Source: Felis catus (Eukaryota). From it: a DNA stretch of 64,000 bases. The notes under the pieces are model-generated. The model made no database searches and was not told where the DNA came from. It saw only the letters and a program-made list of their open reading frames with translations. The position numbers were made by a program, and so were the translations under genes. Within the stretch, counting starts at the first letter, position 1. Each line of letters starts with the position of its first letter. Location: NCBI RefSeq assembly GCF_018350175.1, contig NC_058368.1, forward strand, positions 19,222,001 to 19,286,000. The letters run 5' to 3'. Below are positions 24,516 to 46,790 of the stretch, in pieces.

Positions 24516-24842
24516 TGTAGCAAGATTCTCACACAGAGAGACGGGACACTGAGGCTCTTCTTTCCAGAAAGCAGCTTTATCCATGGCAGCATGGGCTTAG
24601 CCGGCTAAGACCCCAAAAAGGCTGAGCCCCGAGTGCAAGGGGGTGTAGCCTTTTATCCAATTTCTATTTCTTTGTCTCCTGTATCTGGTGACACATATAG
24701 TCTGATTGGACACACTCCAAGTTACAGAGTCGTGTCAGGGTTCTGCTTAAGTGTATAGGAGTTGATTGGGCCACGTGGCAGGTTGCCTTCCTTTGTTCTG
24801 AGAAAGCCTCCATCACGTTCTTTAGGGAGGGGCTCTACCACA
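24516..24842 (-). repeat. 3' LTR (327 bp)
   Basis: Direct repeat of 32348-32670; preceded on the minus strand by PPT AAAGGGGGGAA (24843-24853); CCAAT boxes at 24704-24709 and 24764-24769. Confidence 0.95.
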
Positions 24843-24924
24843 TTCCCCCCTTTGATGCTCAGACCTCGCATTTTGGGTCAAAGAGCATCATCTTGGTTTA
24901 GGGGTTTCTATTTCCATAACATCA

Positions 24925-25590
24925 TCACACGTACGGCCGTCTTCCATTTTGAGTCTCCTGGGTTAAGGATGGCAAAATTAATGGGGTTACAGGATCCTGA
25001 CTGGCAGTTTGACTCAGCCACACACTTCTGGAGGGCTGTTTTGTCTTCAGTCTGCCAGGTGGCCCAGGTGACACAGCTTCCATAAGGACAGAAAGACTGA
25101 GGTGGATGGGGTCAGTGACCACATAAACCAGACTCCTCGCACATGTGCTCATCATTGTGCTGGTAATCTCGATCCCATGCCAGACCTCCACGTGGCACAC
25201 CACATGGCAATATGTCACCTAGGCTGTGCATGCGTCAAAGCATATAGACACCGGCTGGCTTGGATTGGGAATTTGAGCTTTGTTAATTAGTCGGCCCACA
25301 CTGGTGGTGCCTGTCTTGGGGTGACTCCAGACCTCTAGCCATTCCTCCTTTGAGGAGCACTGTGGGTCAAAACAACTGTATTGACTCTCCCGTTGGTAGA
25401 TAGAATAGGTGGTCTTATCGCGTATGCAGGTCCCCAGGATCTTTCCCTGGCATGAGAAGTGGGTATGGTATAGTAAGGTCCAAGTGACTCTTTGGCCTGA
25501 CCTGGTGATGCAAATATGTGGGTCACATGATGAGGAATCTAGGTCTACAGAAGGGGTCCAGATTAGAAGCAACAGTACCAACGAAGCATC
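24925..25590 (-). pseudogene. env: Truncated env SU N-terminus, ERV3/HERV-E-like
   Basis: TLLYHTHFSCQGKILGTCIRDKTTYS...CFDP...VSICFDAC, then after a frame break FCPYGSCVTWATW...GSCNPINFAILNPGDSKWK; resembles ERV3 TLLYHTYYECAGTCLGTC and HERV-E-type SCVIWATW / CNPL motifs. Confidence 0.85.
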
Positions 25591-25899
25591 CTATTCACAA
25601 AAGGAAGGTGAGTGCTAATAGAGACCTCTCACCACACTCCCAGCTGGTCTGGGTGGCTTCTGCCAATCCTATGGTGAAAAGTGGAGCAAGGATCACAATA
25701 ACAGTGAGACACAAGGGGTGACAGCGCATCACAGTAAGGAAACATATAGAAGATAAGGACAGTCTATTTGTTCCACCAGACTGTGGACTCCTCAAGCTTC
25801 TGCCATGCGTGGTCAGCTTCCAGAGTGACTAAAGCAGGGCTGCAGTCTCCCGGAGCCCCTGGAGTTGCAGATTGCTTCTTTCGTATGGTCAGCTTGCGT

Positions 25900-26245
25900 G
25901 GCGTTGATGAATCAGGAACGCACCTCCGCTACCTTTACTGTAGTAAGGCTGGACAAGGGGACAATGAATGGGTCTCTCCAGAGGGGCTTTAGGGGTTGGA
26001 CATTCCATTCCTTTACCCACACAGCATCTCCTGGTTTAAAGGGGTGAGCGTCTGTGGTCAGACACAGGTAATCGCTCCCTAACCCAGTGGTGTAAGGTGG
26101 TTAAGGTGAAGACAAGGGCCCGCATCTGTTGCCTCAGGGTTAGATTGCCTATCTCCTTTAGATACCACCCCCTTATGCCCTTGATAATGGGGGGGGCACC
26201 CATAAAGGATTTTATAAGTGGAGAACCCCATCTGCTTCTTCAGCC
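25900..26245 (-). pseudogene. pol: Integrase C-terminal remnant (HERV-E/ERV3-like)
   Basis: GFSTYKILYGCPP...LKEIGNLTLRQQM...WVRERLP...HPFKPGDAVWVKEWNVQPLKPLWRDPF...TTVKV, with frameshifts. Confidence 0.85.
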
Positions 26246-26459
26246 TTTCACTTGCAGCTATAGTCTGCCTCCTGAAGGTCACTTATCTCTCCCTGCCTAA
26301 TGTTAACCCTTCCTCTATTCATTCCTCCCCCTGGAATAGGGCCCCGAACTGCCTTTAGGGAACAGGGATGATGACCATTCTGGCTTCTTCAAGCTGATAA
26401 GGGACTGTGTCAGGGTACAGCAGTTAGAGCCTACCAAGGGTCCGTCAAGTGGCCCATCG

Positions 26460-26930
26460 TAGGGCTCTGCAGAAAGGCTGACAGGCACGAGGCGGCACAA
26501 ACATTGGCGGACACAAAGAGAAAAACACAAAGTAAAGATTATACTGACCAACAAGACGGCATCTTAAGATACTGTCCCCAGTTCCCAAATCAGTCAAAGA
26601 ATCCAGGAGAGACCCTGACTTTGACCAATTATGGCCACATGTCATCTATCAGTTCTAAGACTATGTGAGAATTATCAGTTATATTGAAACAACACATGTC
26701 AGGGAATCTCTCATAACCCAGGTGATGGAGAAGCAGTAATTAACGGTGGCTCTATTCTCCAAGAGTGGGGCCCTAACTTGATTTAATTTTTTTTTATTTA
26801 AAGCATCTAAAGCTTGTGAGGTGTTATTTAGAGTTTGGCTGAGTATAAGCAGATGGTTTGCTTTATTTCGAGGTATAAGACTTTTTCAAGAGCTGGGGGT
26901 CCTACCAGAGAAAGAGTCAAGGTAGCCATT
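26460..26930 (-). pseudogene. env: env TM remnant (fusion region, heptad, ISD-like segment, CX6CC, membrane anchor), ASLV-gp37-like
   Basis: SLVGPPALEKVLYLEIKQTICL / TLNNTSQALDALNKKKLNQVRAPLLENRATVNY / LLLHHLGYERFPDMCCFNITDNSH...FFD*FGNWGQYLK / LVSIIFTLCFSLC across several frameshifts. Confidence 0.85.
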
Positions 26931-26949
26931 TACCATTACTAATTCACAA

Positions 26950-27400
26950 ACATTTAGGTAAGCTGAACCCAGGTATTATTTCATAAGGCAGAGCTTTTAT
27001 TACCTCTTGTGCCTTTTCACTTTTTTTGTTTTGTTTTGTTTTTTAGAGGACGGCCTCTACCCAATTAGTAAAAGTATCAACCCATCCCAACAGATGTTGG
27101 CATTCCTTCGACCTTGGCATATGAGTGAAACCTAATTGTCAGTCTTCCCTAGGCCTCCAGTTCCTTGATGGCCTGGGAGAGCCAGTTTGTAGTCGAGAGG
27201 ATCGTTTCTAAGGCATACTTCACAGGCTGATACTACTTGCTGAACTGTCCTTGACAAATTTTTCCCAGTAAACATCCTTTGGGCCATTTGATAAGTTTTA
27301 TTCCTCCCTAAATGAAAGGCCTGATGCAGTGCTTTAATGATCTTTTAGCTCTGTGAGCTCATTAAGAGTTATTGCCCCTGCTCTCTTTGTAACCATCCCG
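26950..27400 (-). pseudogene. pol: Integrase N-terminal remnant (HHCC and first core Asp region), HERV-W/ERV9-like
   Basis: HQAFHLG...QMAQRMFTGKNLSRTVQQVVSACEVCLRNDP; FTHMPRSKECQHLLGWVDTFTNWVEA; SEKAQEVIKALPYEIIPGFSLP. Confidence 0.9.
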
Positions 27401-27489
27401 AGGGCTAGAGACAGGGTCCATGAGTCAGACCCCAGTTTGTTTCCTTGGGAGAGTAGGTGGGATTGAGTCCCCTTTAAAAATTGATACAG

Positions 27490-27830
27490 CAGGCAAGCTA
27501 TTTTCTGAACTCAGGATCCACAGCCTACCAAATCCAGTAATTCCCAGAAACTCACACAATTGTTGATCGGTCCTGGAATTAGCAGCACTACAGTCTCTGA
27601 TTTTGTTATAATGTCCCTTCCTAGTAACGCTCTCTGGTAGTATCAAGAAAGAAGCAGAAAAAATTAGTTTTCCCCGTATGCATCCCAGGGGCTGAAAGAA
27701 AAATTTGGTTAAAAGTTTTCCGGAGATGCCTCTGATCATTATCCTACATTTGGATAGTTGCCCCGGAGTGGAAAGGAGGGCAGAAAAGGTGGCTCCGGTA
27801 TCTAGAAAGAAATGAACCAGGCTTTTAGTC
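27490..27830 (-). pseudogene. pro: Retroviral protease remnant fused to an RT thumb fragment
   Basis: FFLDTGATFSALLSTPGQLS (DTG at 27794-27802)...FSASFLILPES, then QLCEFLGITGFGRLWI in the same frame. Confidence 0.9.
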
Positions 27831-27949
27831 ACCTGAGTTTTCCAGAGTTCCCCCAGGCTCCGAGGCTCCCCAGGCTTCCAAAAGACTGTTGGTTCCCAGG
27901 AGCCATAGGTCCTTTTCAGGGACACTGGTTATCTGAGCCCTTACAGAGA

Positions 27950-28630
27950 GAGGTCCCTGAGGGCATTTAGACTTCCAGTGACTGTCTCCAGATAAGGGGT
28001 ATGGCTAGGAGGGCTTTGACTTCTGTGGTCCCTTCAGAGGGCAGCCTCAATTTCCAGTGCCCTGACTGGCCACGTAAGAGGAGTCTGGTCCCAGACCTCG
28101 GGAAGTCTGGTCTTAATGCATAATGCATAAGGCCACAATTAAGGTCTCATATTTTTCTTAAGCCCTTTTCCTGTTTTTTGTTGTTGTTGTTGTTGTTGTT
28201 TGTTTGTTTGTTTTGATCTCAGTTGCAATAACCCACTTGTAAAAGCTCCTCCATGGTCCCTTCAAGGCCAACAGCCAATTTTTGCATTTTCTCTATCTAG
28301 GGTTGATTGAGTGACAAATTTGTCCTTTAAAATCATCTCAGCCTTAAGGGTGTCAGGGGAATAGCCATATATTTAATGAGAGCCTCCCTCAACCTCTCCA
28401 GGAAGGCCATTGGGCTCTCATTCTGTGTAAAATAGTGGCTAATTTAGCATAATTTAAGGGCTTAACCTTAGACCTCCTTAATTTCTCTACAGCACAAGTT
28501 TGGAAGTGGTAGCAATACCATTTCTTAATGGGACGGACATAGTCCCAGTTAGAATCTTGGGATGGAACTACCTGGGCCCTGGTGGAAAACTCCAAGTTCC
28601 CTATAGTACCTCCAGTCCCATGATGATTAA
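27950..28630 (-). pseudogene. gag: gag CA C-terminus and NC remnant (HERV-W/ERV9-like, two degenerate zinc knuckles)
   Basis: QVVPSQDSNWD...HFQTCAVEKLRRSKVKPLNYAKLATI, FLERLREALIKY, ILKDKFVTQS, GQSGHWK and GDSHWKSKCP. Confidence 0.88.
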
Positions 28631-29605
28631 TGAGTTGTTTTTTTATTGTTTGTTTGTGTTTGCTTGTTTTTGTTTTCTTGGAGTTTATGTATCAAAATCA
28701 TCCCAATTTTTCAGAATGCATCCCAAAGGAGTATTGGCCTTGGTTGGGGAATTGCCCATCTATAGGAAAAAGGAGGAAGAGGCATCCCTTAATTTTCATA
28801 GTTGGCCAGGAGAAGCCTCATCTCCTAGCCCTGCGTTTTGGCTGGCTATTCGACTGGCAGCCAAAAGCTTTGTCAGTCTCACGAGGTGCTGGGAGCAGTC
28901 GCTCTTATCCAGGCTTGACCCTACCTCCGAGAATTGACCTCGGCTTTCTCCTATCCCTTTGTTTTCTGCCTGCGGGAATTTGGGGATATCGACTGTGGCC
29001 AAGCAAGACTTCCCTGGTTGTAGAGGACGCACTAATTTTATTTGGCCCAACAGTAATCCTCTTTACAAATACATTTTAAAAGGCTGGGGAAAACCATTTT
29101 TGTAAGGATAAAATTGGTCATCAAGGGGGCTAAAAGGGCCAAAGTCGAGGTCTATTTCCTTGCCTTTTTCAGCAGTGCCCACATAAATATGTTCTAGCCA
29201 CATGGATATCCACTTTAGAGTATCTAGGGTTACAAATTGGCACACCCTGGGCTAAATGTAGCAAAATGGCTCCTATGTATTCCAGTAAAAGCCCTTTATA
29301 TATTATAGTCATCTATCTCTTATAAGGCACAGGCATCCCTTTCTTTGCTAGACAGAAACAACACAAATGTGGAGCATTTGGAGGCTGGCAGCAAGGACGT
29401 CGTCACCTTCTCCCCAGCCTTTGGATCAAAGGAGGGGCAATTTCAATCAAGCCTTGAATAAAACAACTCAAAAGGGCATGCTGTCCTGCCCTTCTGGTTA
29501 AAAATCATATTTTTTTCCATCTTTTTGGGCAGACAAAAAGGGAAAACTTTGTTTACCTCTTTTTTTATTAAAAGCATACCAACCATCTAAGAAAACTTTG
29601 CCTTT

Positions 29606-29832
29606 GGGGCGCCTGGGTGGCGCAGTCGGTTAAGCGTCCGACTTCAGCCAGGTCACGATCTCGCGGTCCGTGAGTTCGAGCCCCGCGTCAGGCTCTGGGC
29701 TGATGGCTCGGAGCCTGGAGCCTGTTTCCGATTCTGTGTCTCCCTCTCTCTCTGCCCCTCCCCCGTTCATGCTCTGTCTCTCTCCGTCCCAAAAATAAAT
29801 AAAAACGTTGAAAAAAATTAAAAAAAAAAAAA
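29606..29832 (+). mobile_element. Young SINEC_Fc inside the provirus
   Basis: Near-TSD aagaaaactttgccttt / aagaaaactgccttt. Confidence 0.96.
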
Positions 29833-30515
29833 GAAAACTGCCTTTTTAACAAAGAGTAAAGCAGAATTTTCATCTTATACCAGCGTACTTTTAAAACCCA
29901 TTTATTTTAACCTTAGTCCATTCTGACCACATATAAAATTTCTTTCCAAAGAATTCCCTTCACAAACCTTCTACAACTCTTCTTTGCTTTCAGATTTTGA
30001 CCTAAGCCCTTTTTCTCCAAACAACCAGTCTCATTTAGGACAATATTACTTTCTTTTACCTTCAACAAAAAATGTGTTCCCATTTCTTATACCTTTCTTA
30101 CATATCTCCTACTTTTCTACATACGGAGTTACTTTTCTTATTTTTCTCAGTCTTAATTACATTTAGCAGAATTTTAACTCTTAGAAACCTTAGTCTCCAG
30201 TGAAAAGTAAGTAGTAACCAGTTGTGAACTGTTACATCAGCATTTTTTTTTTTTTTTTTTGGCCATAAGCTTTAGCATTCCATTCGATTTGGAAAAGGCC
30301 TAAATGTCCAATGGATTTAATTTAGTTTATTATATAAGCAAACCTTTAAGGCTTTAGGTTACCAAAGACCCTGAAAGTTATCTTAATAATTACCCATGAA
30401 AACTTTGAGCCAGACAAAATGAACCATCAATTTAAGCCATGGTTTTTTTGGGTTGACAAATTGTAACAGAGGTACCTTGTTTCACCTGTGTTTACTTAAA
30501 AGTCCACCATTGAAT

Positions 30516-30742
30516 GGGGCGCCTGGGTGGCGCAGTCGGTTAGGCGTCCGACTTCAGCCAGGTCACGATCCCACGGTCCGTGAGTTCGAGCCCCGCGTCG
30601 GGCTCTGGGCTGACGGCTCGGAGCCTGGAGCCTGCTTCCGATTCTGTGTCTCCCTCTCTCTCTGCCCCTCCCCCATTCATGCTGTGTCTCTCTCTGTCTC
30701 AAAAATAAATAAACGTTAAAAAAAAAATTAAAAAAAAAAAAA
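30516..30742 (+). mobile_element. Young SINEC_Fc inside the provirus
   Basis: TSD aaaagtccaccattg. Confidence 0.96.
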
Positions 30743-31344
30743 GTCCACCATTGTCAACTTATACTTAGGGTACCAGTGAGGAAATGTGAGGTGGGTGGTG
30801 TAAGTCTAAGGGGATGTTCTTTGCTCTCTGACAGCAAGGGAGGGAGGCACCCAGATGGTCTAGGAGCCAGATATGGAAGCTGCGCCCAAGGCGGCGCAGA
30901 AACAGGATGGGGAGAGGAAGGCGGAGGAGGTAGGTGCCACCAAGAGGCCTGGAGGCAGATGAAAGGCCAGAGGGCAGAGAAAGAGGTCTCCTGGTCCTAA
31001 AGCCTGTCAGCTCACACAGAAAAGCGGATGCAGATTTTTTCCACCGCCAAGGGGAATTAGGCAGTCCACACAGATCTAGAGAAGACAGGGAATTTCCCCC
31101 AAACCAAAGGAGTCTTGGCAGCTGCTTGGGAATATTCCTTAATGTCTCCATCCTGAGGTAGACTAACGAGAGTCAGTTGGCTCTCATTATCGTAGTCATT
31201 GACCCAGGAAATGAGTGAGGGAGAAGCCCCCACCTACGGTTAGAGTTACGGGAATGTATGAGGGGAAACAGTGAGAGAGAGTGTCGGTCTCCTTTGTTAG
31301 GGATGGCCTGTGTTTTGTTTTGTTTTGTTTTTTTAGCAACCTGG

Positions 31345-31795
31345 GTTAGGTGTTGGAACACTTCTATATATTGATAAGGGTTGTCTGAAAATTTGCCCAG
31401 GTGCTTTTTATTTGCTTAGAATCTTGCAAGGGAAATGGAACCTTTATGGGGCCAAATCCACCATAACGCATTGTAGTCAATAGATGCATTGAACAACATG
31501 CCTTGATTTTAGGGGGAGAATTTTTTATCCCTGGCAATCCTGGATAAGGAGGTCATGAGGGTCTAACAAGTGGCTTTTCCTGAGGAGAGGCCTCAGGGGG
31601 TGAGTCTGCGAGTACTTGCCTTTCTTGGCCCCTTTAAGGCAAAGAAGACGTGCAACATAAGGAACTTCTGACCATTTACCCTCTCTTCTACAATATGGAT
31701 CTAACTGTAACGTAGCACTACACTGAATACTTCCCTCGGGAGGCCAGGACTCTCCATCCTCCAGGAGATACTTCAGGCGCGTCTTAGCATTGGCA
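31345..31795 (-). pseudogene. gag: gag MA and CA N-terminus remnant (HERV-W/ERV9-like)
   Basis: EDGESWPPEGSI...LQLD...KWSEVPYV; FPLQDSKQIK / LGKFSDNPYQYIEVFQHLTQ. Confidence 0.88.
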
Positions 31796-32322
31796 GGTTC
31801 AGTATCAAGCCCTGACCCGGGTCAGACACCCGAGGAAGGTCTGACACCGCCTTAAGCCATATGAGGTCGCCAGGGAACCGCACATCAGCACTCAACACCA
31901 GCTTTGGCCCCTTGATCAGGCTGGAAACTTTCTGCTCTCCTTCTCATTCACACACAGTCACACAGCAACTCCAACCCATCGCCGAACGCCCGGCGCCTTA
32001 GAGTTGTGGTTTTGTTCCTTATGCCTTATGGGACTACTCAGGCAACTCTGGGAGGTGATCAGGCCCCCCCCCCTTCTGCCTCTTAGGGGCAGGTCTACCA
32101 AAAGGGACCCGGGGTCCTACCAGTCTGACATGTGGCGCTCCCTGAGCTGGTTGCTGGGCCTCACCGGTTCCATTGTGCGTCCCAGGTCCCTGCCCTGGCA
32201 CACCCGGAGGGGCTAGTCTTCTACAGATCAAGCCGTCCGCTGGCACCAGGAAAGGTGGCTTCTCCCGGCGCTCTGAGGTTCGCACCCCAGTGACAAAGGA
32301 GGAGGAAACGCACCGTCTCCGA

Positions 32323-32342
32323 ATCCTGGACGCAGGACCCCA
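32323..32342 (-). promoter_or_regulatory. Primer-binding site, degenerate tRNA-Pro type
   Basis: TGGGGTCCTGCGTCCAGGAT, 5 nt from the LTR; canonical Pro PBS is TGGGGGCTCGTCCGGGAT. Confidence 0.75.
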
Positions 32343-32347
32343 AGAAA

Positions 32348-32670
32348 TGTAGCAGGGTGCTTACACAGACGGGACACTGAGGCTCTTCCTTCCAGGAAAC
32401 AGCTTTATCCGTGCCAGCAGGGGCTCAGCCAGCTAAGACCCCAAAAAGGCTGAGCCCCGAGTGCAGCGGGGTGCAGCCTTTTATGCAATTGCTACTTCTT
32501 TGTCTCCTGTTTCTGGTGACATATATAGTCTGAGTGGACACAGTCCAAGTGACAGAGTCGTGTCAGGGTTATGCTTACGTGTATAGGAGTTGACTGGGCC
32601 ACGTGGCAGGTTGCCTTCCTTTGTTCTGAGAAAGCCTCCATCACGTTCCTTAGGAAGGGGCTCTACCACA
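32348..32670 (-). repeat. 5' LTR (323 bp)
   Basis: By manual alignment about 28 substitutions and one 4-bp indel versus the 3' LTR. Confidence 0.95.
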
Positions 32671-33179
32671 GAATGAGGTTTACATTAGTTCTTTGTTAAA
32701 CTACTATTACTAAATTCTATATGCAATACACAGAATTATTCAGTACCCAGGGTTACGTCCCACTGGTTGTAAACACTCAAGAAATTAAGCCCCGCCGGTT
32801 TTCAAAGCCAAATCTTATGGAGACTCATCTTCGCAGTGCAGCCCCCCCTGTGTCTGGGGTACCCCCTGTGGGGTCCCCTCCTCTCCCTTCTCGTCGCTTG
32901 TGGGGGGCCCCTCCTGTTTGTGGTTAGTCTTGCCAGGAGTTTTGTTCCCCACTGAATCTCCTCCCCACCTACCCTTTTCAACGTGGCCTCCTCTCTACAA
33001 AGAACTGTGGAAAGTCTGTTCCACCAGTCTTCGGGTTGCTTTCAGAGTTAGCGGCTCCGATGTGGCTGTTCTCTCCTTGTGTCGGTGGGACAAGGTGAGC
33101 TCAGGATCCTTCTGTTAGGTAGAAGCTAGATATGAGCAGTGGAAGGAACGACAGGAGGCAGAGTCCCAAATTTTTGAAG

Positions 33180-33700
33180 GGGAATGACAGACCTGAGCTG
33201 GTAGACCTAGCAAGGATGGTAAGAAATAAGCTACACGTGAGAAGCCTGGGGCACGATAGCCTGACCTTGGGGCTGAAAGTTCAAGCGCCACAGGTGTGGA
33301 GCATGCGCTCTCCTCTTCCACCGCTGCCCCAGGGTAACCCCTACACTCATTATAATACATTTGCATAGCGGGACAGCCCTGCCCGCTGACGCTGACGAAA
33401 GTCTGCTCTGCTAGTTCTGGTACTATCTCCTAGGGTCAAAAGCTCCCCCCCTCCCAACCTGTGGGAGGAGTCCCCCATAGGTTTGGAATCAGCCTCCATT
33501 AGAGACCACCCAGCTATGCGTCACAGCTCCTCCCAGCCCAGAGACTTGCAACAAATATCCAATCCCAAAACAACCTAGGGCCGGTTCCACCTTGAGGAAC
33601 CTGTCTGCTCTCCCGCCTTGAGAGTGTATTTTCACTTTAATACATTTTTGCTTGCTACTTTCCTTCTGCCCCTCTTTATTCGAGCACGGATCCTCATGGA
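33180..33700 (+). mobile_element. Probable ERV1-type solo LTR, unrelated to the proviral LTRs
   Basis: ctcattataatac and cttgagagtgtattttcactttaataca (R-region/polyA-like) motifs; ends uncertain. Confidence 0.55.
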
Positions 33701-34699
33701 AATCTTCTCATGGGGATTCCAAGGGCCAAAATCTCCACTCATACAGCACAGACTCTCCCACCAGTAACACTCCTAACTCCATCCTCCCAGAAGTCCCCAA
33801 GATGTGCATTCAGGATTGGCCTTCCTCCCCCTGCACCATCTAACAACGAGCTAACACCACATATCTTGCAGCTGCCGTCAATAAGGCCCTATTCAGCGAT
33901 GTGGCTAGCACCTCCTAGGAGCTCACGGAAGCTCTACCCAGTGGAGTAACAACATTCGTTCAAGGAGTGCCTACCCTGCGCGTTACCAAACATCACAAGG
34001 GCAGCTAGGCAGGTTTTTCTCTTTTTCAGCCCCTATTTTACTAAAAGGGTTTGGATTTAGCAAATCATGCCATCACTTTCCTTTCTTATTTCTTTAGATA
34101 CACTGCTGCCTTCCCATTTAGCAGAAGCACAACATTTTTTCCTTGTTATTTACAATCACAGCAGATCTGTGTCTAATCTTGCCATTTCCAAGTCTGCTCT
34201 CTAAAGTTGTTCTGAACTCTGTTCAAGTGGCCTCGGCCAGTGTATACGAAGGCCCAGATACCCTGTTCCGCCCTAGGCAGAGGATTATAAGGCTTTTCTT
34301 CCTTATGGAGTTTGCAATCTAAAATGACCACCTGTGACTCGGGTAGACATACAACAGATAAGAGAATTGTAATTGCGACACAAACACATGAAATACACGG
34401 AACTGAATTTGGAATGGTAAATTGGTTGTCACAACAGAGCTGTGACTGTTACTTTAGTTCCACTTACATTTTTTGTTCGAACTCCTTGTTCCTTTCCTCA
34501 TTTTGGAGGTGAGGCAACTGAAGCCTACCCAGTTAAATGCTCTGCAAAGTCCACACAGAGCCAAGAGAGAACTCAGGGTCTTGACTGATAGGCTGTTCTC
34601 TGCAGTGCGCATGGATGGCTTCCTTCTTTCTTCATATAATAACAACTGCCTAACTCTGGGCCATCCAGAGAGTGTTTTAGGAATCTATGTTAAGCGTGA

Positions 34700-45492: not shown

Positions 45493-46790
45493 AATGTTTA
45501 TTTAGTTTTGAGAGAAAGACAGAGACAGAGACAGTGTGAGCAGGGGAGGGGCAGAGAGAGAAAGAGGGAGACACAGAATCTGAAGCAGGCTCCAGGCTCT
45601 GAGCTGTCAGCACAGAGCCTGATGTGGGACTCCATCTCATGAACCTTGAGATCATGACTTGAGCTAAAGTCGGATGCTTAACCCACTGAGCTACCCAGGT
45701 GCCCCTGCATGCCTAACAAAGTTTTTATTTTGCCCTCACAACTAATTTGACTGGGTATAGGTTTCCAAAGTTGAAAATCATTACTCCCCTAAATGTTGAG
45801 GCTATTATGCCACTGTTTCTAGTGGGGCTACTGAGAAATCTAATGCCACTATGATTCTTGTTTCTTGTAGGAGCTGCAGTTCCCTCACCCCAGGAGAATT
45901 CTTGGGATCTTCTCTGTATGGCTTGTTCTAAAACTTCCAAATGATGTGTGGCCTTTTCCACTCCCCCTAATCAAAACTCAGGAGGCCCTTTTTTTCAAAC
46001 ATTGTTTTTTAAGTGTATTTATTTTGAGAGAGAGAGAGCACAAGTGGGCAAGGAACAGAGAGAAAGGGAGAGAAAGAGAATCCCAGTGTGGGGCTTGAAC
46101 TCACAAACTGTGAGATCATGACCAGAGCCAAAATCAAGAGTCAGCAGCTTAACTGACTGAGTCACTCAGGCGCCCCTCAGGCAGTTATCTTTGATTGAAA
46201 ACTCATACCTTTAGTAGTGGAATTTTCATTGTATTACTTCTTTGGGATCTTTTCCCCCTCAGTTTCTCTGTTCTTTCTGGAATTCCTTTTCGTCTCTTAT
46301 TGGATCCCCTCTGGATCTACCCTTTGTGTTTTTGTGTGTTCATGCTGTCATATTTTACATATTTTTTGCTCCAGGTTTTGAGAGATTTCCTTTAATCTAT
46401 CTTACAATCCTCTCTTGAATTTTCATTTCCAAGGGTTCTGTCCCATTTTCTTTTTTTAAGATTTTATTTTTAAGTGATCTCTACACCCAATGTGGTGCTT
46501 GAACTCACAACCCCAAGATCAAGGGTAGCATGCTCCACCAACAAAGTCAGCCAGGCACCCCATCTATCCCATTTTCTGATTTTTCCTTCTTATGGCATCA
46601 TAGTTTTGTTTAATAAAATATCATTTCACATCTCCTTAGGGACAAATAATTAATTTTATAGGGTTTTTATTTGACTCTTGTTATATTCCCTGAATTCTGT
46701 TTTCCTCTGGGGTTGGTTTTTCTATGTTTATCTTTTTTTCATCATATTGTAGGCTTTTCTCAGGTGATTCTCAGTTATCAGGCTGTTCCT
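45300..46790 (-). mobile_element. Ancient L1 ORF1-region remnant with SINEs at 45490-45704, 45990-46176 and 46450-46561 and (GT)n at 45448-45489
   Basis: atttgactgggtatagg...gagaaatctaatgcc resembles antisense L1 ORF1; the SINE bodies are clear. Confidence 0.65.

Follow-up and report, generated by a model that had tools for sequence, protein, structure and literature searches.

How could a single provirus come to carry the transmembrane (TM) subunit of one envelope ahead of the surface (SU) subunit of another? The question is raised by an endogenous retrovirus (ERV) of the cat, Felis catus (assembly GCF_018350175.1), which occupies 8.2 kb on the minus strand, at positions 24516..32670 of a 64,000-nucleotide stretch of contig NC_058368.1 (19,222,001 to 19,286,000 of the forward strand). 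This whole stretch is called the window below, and all positions refer to it. A first-pass annotation, made from the letters alone, described one integrated mosaic that reads, in viral order, long terminal repeat (LTR), Pro-like primer binding site (PBS), gag N-terminus, foreign segment, gag C-terminus with two zinc knuckles, protease, reverse transcriptase (RT) thumb, integrase N-terminus, env TM, internal polypurine tract (PPT) with an LTR-like stub, integrase C-terminus, env SU, PPT and LTR. The components are indeed found in this order. Here, we put at about 0.65 the probability that the element is a dead class I (ERV1) recombinant of the Harlequin type, dependent on a helper virus, produced by template switching and inserted once, roughly 15-25 million years ago. 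The mosaic is itself of a known kind; the alpha-type TM remnant that it carries matters more.

Boundaries and integrity of the provirus

The two LTRs are 91% identical, with 28 differences in 323 aligned columns (Kimura two-parameter distance 0.093; 7.9% outside CpG sites). With a neutral rate that we take to be 2-2.5e-9 per site per year, this divergence of about 9% suggests an insertion age of roughly 15-25 million years, and therefore an insertion in a stem felid or feliform rather than a pan-carnivore one; the germ line of an ancestral carnivore, as first proposed, gives way to this later setting. Both strands of the 64 kb were scanned for PPT-like sites, defined as a stretch of at least 10 purines that contains a G5 run and is followed by TG. 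Only three such sites occur in the window, and two of them, at 26320 and 24841, lie within the provirus. The paired TG...CA LTRs, the PBS (presumably of the Pro type), the PPT and flanking 4-mers that agree at 3 of 4 bases, as a short target-site duplication (TSD), are features of class I, as are the gamma-type integrase domains Integrase_H2C2 and MLVIN_C found by Pfam, which are separated by about 1.2 kb. All viral components are in sense relative to each other and the same LTR family stands at both ends. The reading as one provirus is supported.

Decay is advanced. Of 21 fragments searched against Pfam, 4 matched a retroviral family, zf-CCHC and TLV_coat being among the families that none matched, and the long stop-masked frames returned integrase domains and nothing else. 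The Rfam search gave two sub-threshold chance matches only. Since the longest stop-free frame counts 167 codons, the provirus is dead, and no function is expected of it. Sampled words of 24843-29590 are present at fractions of 0.61-0.71 in 19 of the 24 listed runs (7 studies, one organism label); three runs with word fractions of 0.00-0.04 were counted as no evidence. This argues for real DNA and bears on the words, not on their contiguity. An assembly artefact was rejected on the LTR pair, the PBS, the PPTs and this word content.

An alpha-type TM between the integrase halves

Ten relatives of the TM remnant were found among 1.84 billion representatives. TM homologues align at 26846-26311, flanked by the two halves of the integrase, and the profile match in the window lies at 26742-26491 (independent E-value 5e-27). 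Eight relatives compared pairwise are 42-60% identical over a loop-to-anchor fragment of 45-59 residues. Searched with a profile of eight of the relatives, the TM of avian sarcoma and leukosis virus (ASLV) ranks first (E 7e-13), followed by a GP2 ectodomain (5e-7), syncytin-2 (1.6e-5) and then filovirus GP2. The window's own TM fragment also places ASLV first, with an E-value of only 1.2, and the upstream TM fragment has no PDB match. Judged by the homologue profile and not by a tree, the TM ectodomain is thus assessed as closer to ASLV than to the gamma-type TM, as the first-pass annotation had it.

The translated remnant retains a glycan sequon in heptad repeat 1 (HR1), an immunosuppressive domain, a decayed cysteine loop, a membrane anchor and a tail. 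The N-glycan sequon stands at the HR1 start, a position that is a feature of alpha-type Env (PMC3758190; PMC9967133). A full-length homologue, P0010, has a furin-like site at 214 and fusion-peptide-flanking cysteines at 223 and 260. Among 74 of 94 human env-subgroup headers, all class I included, none resembles the TM by eye, and a search of the ESM Atlas with the homologue P0002 gave generic TLV_coat clusters only. As an observation in its own right, P0010 and the cluster members P0021-P0029 appear to be intact alpha-type Env proteins of 437 residues with a CX6CC motif, present in public assemblies.

The SU piece reads differently. Its homologue search gave none from 67 candidates, and its PDB search returned Sec13-type chance matches only; by eye, it reads like the SU of HERV-E, HERV3 or HERV-I. 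The remainder of this SU and the TM of the same donor have been deleted, and so has the SU that belonged to the alpha-type TM. The locus therefore holds two unrelated env remnants with TM before SU, as had been described, and a truly reversed env gene was rejected because the two pieces are unrelated. The internal stub beside the TM shows no similarity to the provirus's own LTRs, and the TM module comes without a full LTR of its own. Nesting of this module as a later insertion between target-site repeats was also rejected: its flanking repeat is 5 nt, which is background level, as 189 of 500 random pairs gave at least 6 nt. Separately, about 180 nt at 25600-25780, downstream of the overlap of integrase and env and ahead of the SU start, encode a second hydrophobic, signal-peptide-like stretch, which possibly reflects two env starts.

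The order would then be explained by the tails of two genomes, each shortened by deletion, and not by reversal. The first tail would consist of the integrase head, a deletion, the TM, a PPT and the start of an LTR, and the second would follow it with the integrase tail, the SU start, a deletion, a PPT and the LTR. The features of the provirus are listed in Table 1.

Table 1. Features of the cat provirus in viral order (SINE, short interspersed element; MA, matrix; CA, capsid)
Feature	Position	Strand	Basis or remark
5' LTR	32348..32670	-	323 nt; TG...CA
PBS-like 20-mer	32323..32342	-	Pro-like with indels
GC-rich leader, 60% GC	31830..32322	-	base composition
gag piece A (inner MA, p12, CA start), HERV-W/9-like, without gag start, frameshifted	31330..31800	-	tblastn
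GC-rich stretch, 570 nt	30760..31329	-	one copy of 11-nt repeat at upper edge; no Pfam match
SINE, later insertion	30515..30742	+	own 15-nt flanking repeat
AT-rich stretch, 32% GC	29850..30500	-	base composition
Second SINE, later insertion	29605..29832	+	95% like first SINE; own target-site repeats
Pre-gag-like stretch, ~820 nt	28760..29590	-	ends in pyrimidine tract and AG directly before gag ATG
Second gag start, ~30 codons	28635..28759	-	ends in A-rich run with other copy of 11-nt repeat
gag C-terminal half, two decayed zinc knuckles	27950..28630	-	translation; Gag_p30 E 0.038; zf-CCHC unmatched
Protease, HERV-W/9-like	27620..27841	-	RVP E 0.032 (weak)
RT thumb remnant	27480..27590	-	translation; motif of W/9/30 form by eye against pol text; Pfam RT unmatched
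Integrase N-terminal part (zinc domain, core start)	26935..27480	-	Integrase_H2C2 E 1.5e-12 at ~27353-27201
Alpha-type (ASLV/filovirus-like) env TM remnant	26335..26870	-	homologue mapping, profile; frameshifts and stops
Internal PPT, TG and LTR-like stub of ~75 nt	26245..26332	-	PPT scan; LTR nature from position only
Integrase C-terminal part into env start, HERV-E/HERV3-like	25830..26245	-	MLVIN_C E 1.6e-9 at ~26046-25897
env signal region and SU N-terminal part, HERV3/HERV-I/HERV-E-like	24945..25830	-	translation; by eye
env 3' end and terminal PPT	24843..24944	-	sequence
3' LTR	24516..24842	-	327 nt; TG...CA

Donors and origin of the mosaic

Lineage calls were made by eye against the consensus text in supplements 3 and 4 of PMC4724089, about 400 characters per sequence being available; for the other comparative sources cited below, too, statements refer to the accessible portions. 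On this basis gag and protease look like human ERV (HERV) groups W and 9, and the integrase tail, env start, SU and LTR end look like HERV-E and HERV3, in agreement with the first-pass annotation; for the end of the integrase, the beginning of env and the SU, the likeness is to the HERVERI supergroup (HERV-E, HERV3 or HERV-I), clear by eye but with no scored match. By hand count, the protease shares 36 of 63 residues with the HERV-W consensus text and 20 of 63 with that of HERV-E. The gag-pro donor shows the features of the HERVW9 supergroup by eye, namely the similarity of gag, protease and RT thumb and the two knuckles; the catalytic RT and the RNase H have been deleted, and only the thumb is kept. 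At the other end of the comparison, the 16 nt at 32341-32356, which cover the 5' LTR end and the spacer that precedes the PBS, match the published end of a Harlequin chain (HERV-E with LTR2) exactly. The view of a mosaic interior is supported.

For gag, the homologue search retained 1 of 188 candidates. By eye, the homologue P0001 resembles the HERV9 consensus, and gag piece A, compared in the same way with the gag of HERV-W, 9 and 30, is W/9-like. With P0001 and P0012-P0018 as queries, tblastn gave 48-64% identity to piece A (E ~1e-13 to 1e-15), all eight homologues aligning at 31773-31633 or beyond. Their N-terminal residues also align at ~28807-28670, which is downstream of piece A in viral order; here six of the eight have E < 1e-3 (4e-5 to 3e-4), one has 0.43 and one has no alignment. 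Two partial gags are therefore present. The 2.7-kb foreign segment that had been placed within one gag has to be redescribed, because it holds two later SINEs, presumably of a felid family, together with about 2 kb without family assignment, and ends in the second gag start at 28759. The AT-rich part of it (29850..30500) recalls what we take to be the AT-rich interior of MER4-group elements. As a side observation, piece A begins about a dozen codons from the end of the second gag start (homologue residues 110 versus 98). The two gag pieces are thus nearly complementary, and both breakpoints may go back to one A-rich pause site. At 27021-27044, 28172-28215, 30243-30262 and 31309-31334, runs of viral sequence rich in A have grown into A/C microsatellites.

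These parts could be assembled as follows. A HERV-E/HERV3-like parent would have given the LTRs, the integrase tail, the SU start and the final PPT, and a HERV-W/9-like parent both gag pieces, the protease, the RT thumb and the integrase head. The 3' end of the HERV-W/9-like parent, after a deletion from pol to env, or that of a third parent would account for the alpha-type TM and for the PPT and LTR stub that belong to it. Reverse transcriptase would have joined the pieces by switching templates between co-packaged RNAs, the enzymes of a helper virus would have packaged and integrated the defective genome, and after insertion the element would have gained the two SINEs and decayed. Template switching is the simplest reading, with one orientation throughout, a repeat at background level around the TM module and a stub unlike the outer LTRs. 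All pieces in sense with the same LTR at both ends is also what PMC4724089 expects of re-integrated mosaics.

Several points weigh against this reading. Assignments were made by eye and not from trees, and the integrase N-terminus, which we take to be W/9-like from recall and contiguity only, found no homologue among 7 candidates and has no named reference. The match of the window to the cysteine-flanked fusion peptide is at shuffle level (p 0.48). A TSD of 3 of 4 bases is, alone, weak evidence of integration. No second copies of the junctions were found in the metagenome and viral collections that were scanned, which are almost without host DNA; scans of these collections for the TM-alignment locus gave 10 and 103 pattern matches, none confirmed, and an LTR 20-mer gave five metagenome loci without extended similarity, taken as chance, and no viral one. 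The internal stub, if it is an LTR, would be at odds with one of the two marks of re-integrated mosaics in the accessible part of PMC4724089, the lack of a third, unrelated LTR inside; Harlequin itself carries an internal LTR8. In addition, a direct A-rich repeat of 11 nt (31325-31335 and 28635-28645) brackets the 2.69-kb block, and an L1-type insertion could also leave such a repeat.

Then, how many donors took part, and was template switching the process that joined them? At least three lineages had been claimed at first. However, the combination of an alpha-type env with a gamma-type pol has been documented, as an association described as long and stable (PMC13568524), so that a single donor with a deletion may account for gag, protease, integrase head and TM, and two donors are enough; moreover, the integrase head, TM, PPT and stub stand in normal viral order and are explained by one deletion. 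On the other side, the nearest known relatives of the TM are not those of the gag-pol, the interior includes 2.0 kb without family assignment, and the bat viruses with alpha-type env are tied in PMC13568524 to an ARTgagpol-like pol that is not stated there to be HERV-W-like (the placement of ARTgagpol was not found in the accessible part of PMC9604959). Three or more separate donors, with the TM from a virus of its own, would be a sub-case of template switching that differs in donor count, and we regard it as possible but rather doubtful. In all, two or three parents are likely, the W/9-like gag-pol and the TM perhaps coming from one of them.

The bracketing repeat bears on another process, in which the 2.69-kb block would be an L1-mediated retrocopy of the leader of another ERV's RNA, primed at an A-rich site and placed within gag, with deletions doing the rest. 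An A-rich tract does lie at the 3' end of the block, and of 500 random pairs of positions 7 reached a score of at least 11, all at the ceiling of 19 and taken as self-overlaps. However, the repeat is of low complexity, and the provirus has four further runs rich in A and C, of 20-44 nt; the A-rich tract coincides with lysine codons of the gag start, some 40 codons of the reference separate the gag sequences on either side by eye, so that the site is not clean, and the TM module and the donor of the integrase tail and SU are left unexplained. We consider such a retrocopy unlikely. Still less probable is an exchange in the host genome, by ectopic recombination or gene conversion between two proviruses or by deletions within a tandem insertion: the internal PPT and stub do resemble the end of one provirus, but the outer LTRs are of one family with a near-TSD, and the junction partners are too dissimilar for homologous exchange. 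Finally, the element could be a decayed copy of a carnivore or felid ERV1 family already catalogued in Repbase or Dfam, for which the chances seem about even. Carnivore ERV1 entries exist (CarERV4-int, CARLTR1-INT), and 61% of human ERV chains (1959 of 3173) are non-canonical mosaics (PMC4724089); a carnivore mosaic of such a plan was not found in the literature searched, which consisted mostly of titles and abstract beginnings. This possibility is compatible with template switching between co-packaged genomes and would remove novelty only.

The closest known plan is that of Harlequin, in which HERV-E ends enclose MER57, internal LTR8, MER4 and HERV-I pieces, and which has been attributed to co-packaging and polymerase jumps (PMC4724089; PMC5753468). 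Both Harlequin and the cat provirus are defective and have HERV-E-type ends, between which foreign HERV9/W, MER4-group and internal LTR pieces lie. However, Harlequin is a primate family with LTR2, a Glu PBS, a HERV-E gag and often a fairly intact HERV-E env, whereas the cat provirus has another LTR, a Pro-like PBS, a W/9-like gag, a deleted env and an extra alpha-type TM. With a W/9-like gag, no HERV-E TM and a match at the LTR end alone, it works like Harlequin and is not a member. A multi-donor recombinant with an internal LTR piece, as in the first-pass annotation, is of a kind that Harlequin already represents. The leader invites a second comparison: ERV-W, HERV9 and HERV30 have a long pre-gag that ends in a 3' splice acceptor, and the pre-gag of ERV-W sometimes carries a captured piece of another ERV (PMC6995185). 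The cat provirus shares with them a long leader with a splice acceptor before gag, two knuckles and a similar protease, and differs in that its leader, ~3.1 kb without the SINEs, carries a gag fragment, and in that its LTRs and env are of other lineages.

Beside the provirus, 32700-33110, next to the 5' LTR, recalls what is presumably an antisense remnant of an L1 5' untranslated region, and ~33114-33730 (plus strand) may be a solo LTR of another family, a stretch of 59 nt in it being 76% like 46479-46537. ARAGORN called six tRNAs in the window (8676, 12730, 14940, 18019, 18651 and 29611); that at 29611 lies in a SINE head, as the other five probably do.

Alpha-type envelopes in mammals

Could an alpha-type envelope be expected in a felid? 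According to the accessible parts of PMC13568524, mammalian hosts of alpha-type env (CHIRalphaEnv and relatives) are bats, afrotherians, rodents and moles, and the main text of a preprint (bioRxiv 10.1101/2024.03.17.585361) adds rhinoceros, pocket mouse, pangolins and rabbit for the Env-Dbi/Env-Per group. A single ancient origin should have left relatives in Carnivora, according to PMC13568524, which favours separate transmissions instead. The workbook of this 2026 screen names Felis (3 of 3 places), Panthera (9 of 9), Acinonyx, Neofelis, Canis, Ursus, Hyaena and Mustela nowhere but in its list of screened genomes, where the last places of Lynx and Prionailurus (1 of 3 and 3 of 5 places covered) also lie; Suricata occurs in the reference-title column only, among the 16 of 19 places listed. 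Pangolins are in the hit table. In the 15 rows listed of that table, the aligned length always exceeds 300 residues; the screen would therefore be likely to miss a remnant as short as about 130 codons. No alpha-type env in carnivores was found in the portions of the literature searched, which included PMC4373062, PMC10536682 and PMC9604959. The cat remnant resembles the CHIRalphaEnv and Env-Dbi groups in that their TM, too, is closest to ASLV, and the bat elements likewise adjoin remnants of gamma-type pol; these groups are largely full-length and some members co-opted, whereas the cat remnant is a broken TM only, in a host not listed there.

We tentatively suggest, at somewhat less than even odds, that an alpha-type env lineage existed on HERV-W/9-like gag-pol in stem felids, and that a helper-dependent family resembling Harlequin acquired it and spread through the cat lineage. 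The mosaic itself is one carnivore example of a phenomenon mapped mainly in humans, and short TM-only remnants inside recombinants can likely escape length-filtered screens. In PMC13568524, that Carnivora lack such envelopes is taken to favour separate transmissions into bats, rodents and afrotherians, an argument that the remnant in a felid allows to be probed directly. If the suggestion is true, alpha-type env would be recorded from Carnivora for the first time, in contrast to the lineage-restricted distribution for which that study argues.

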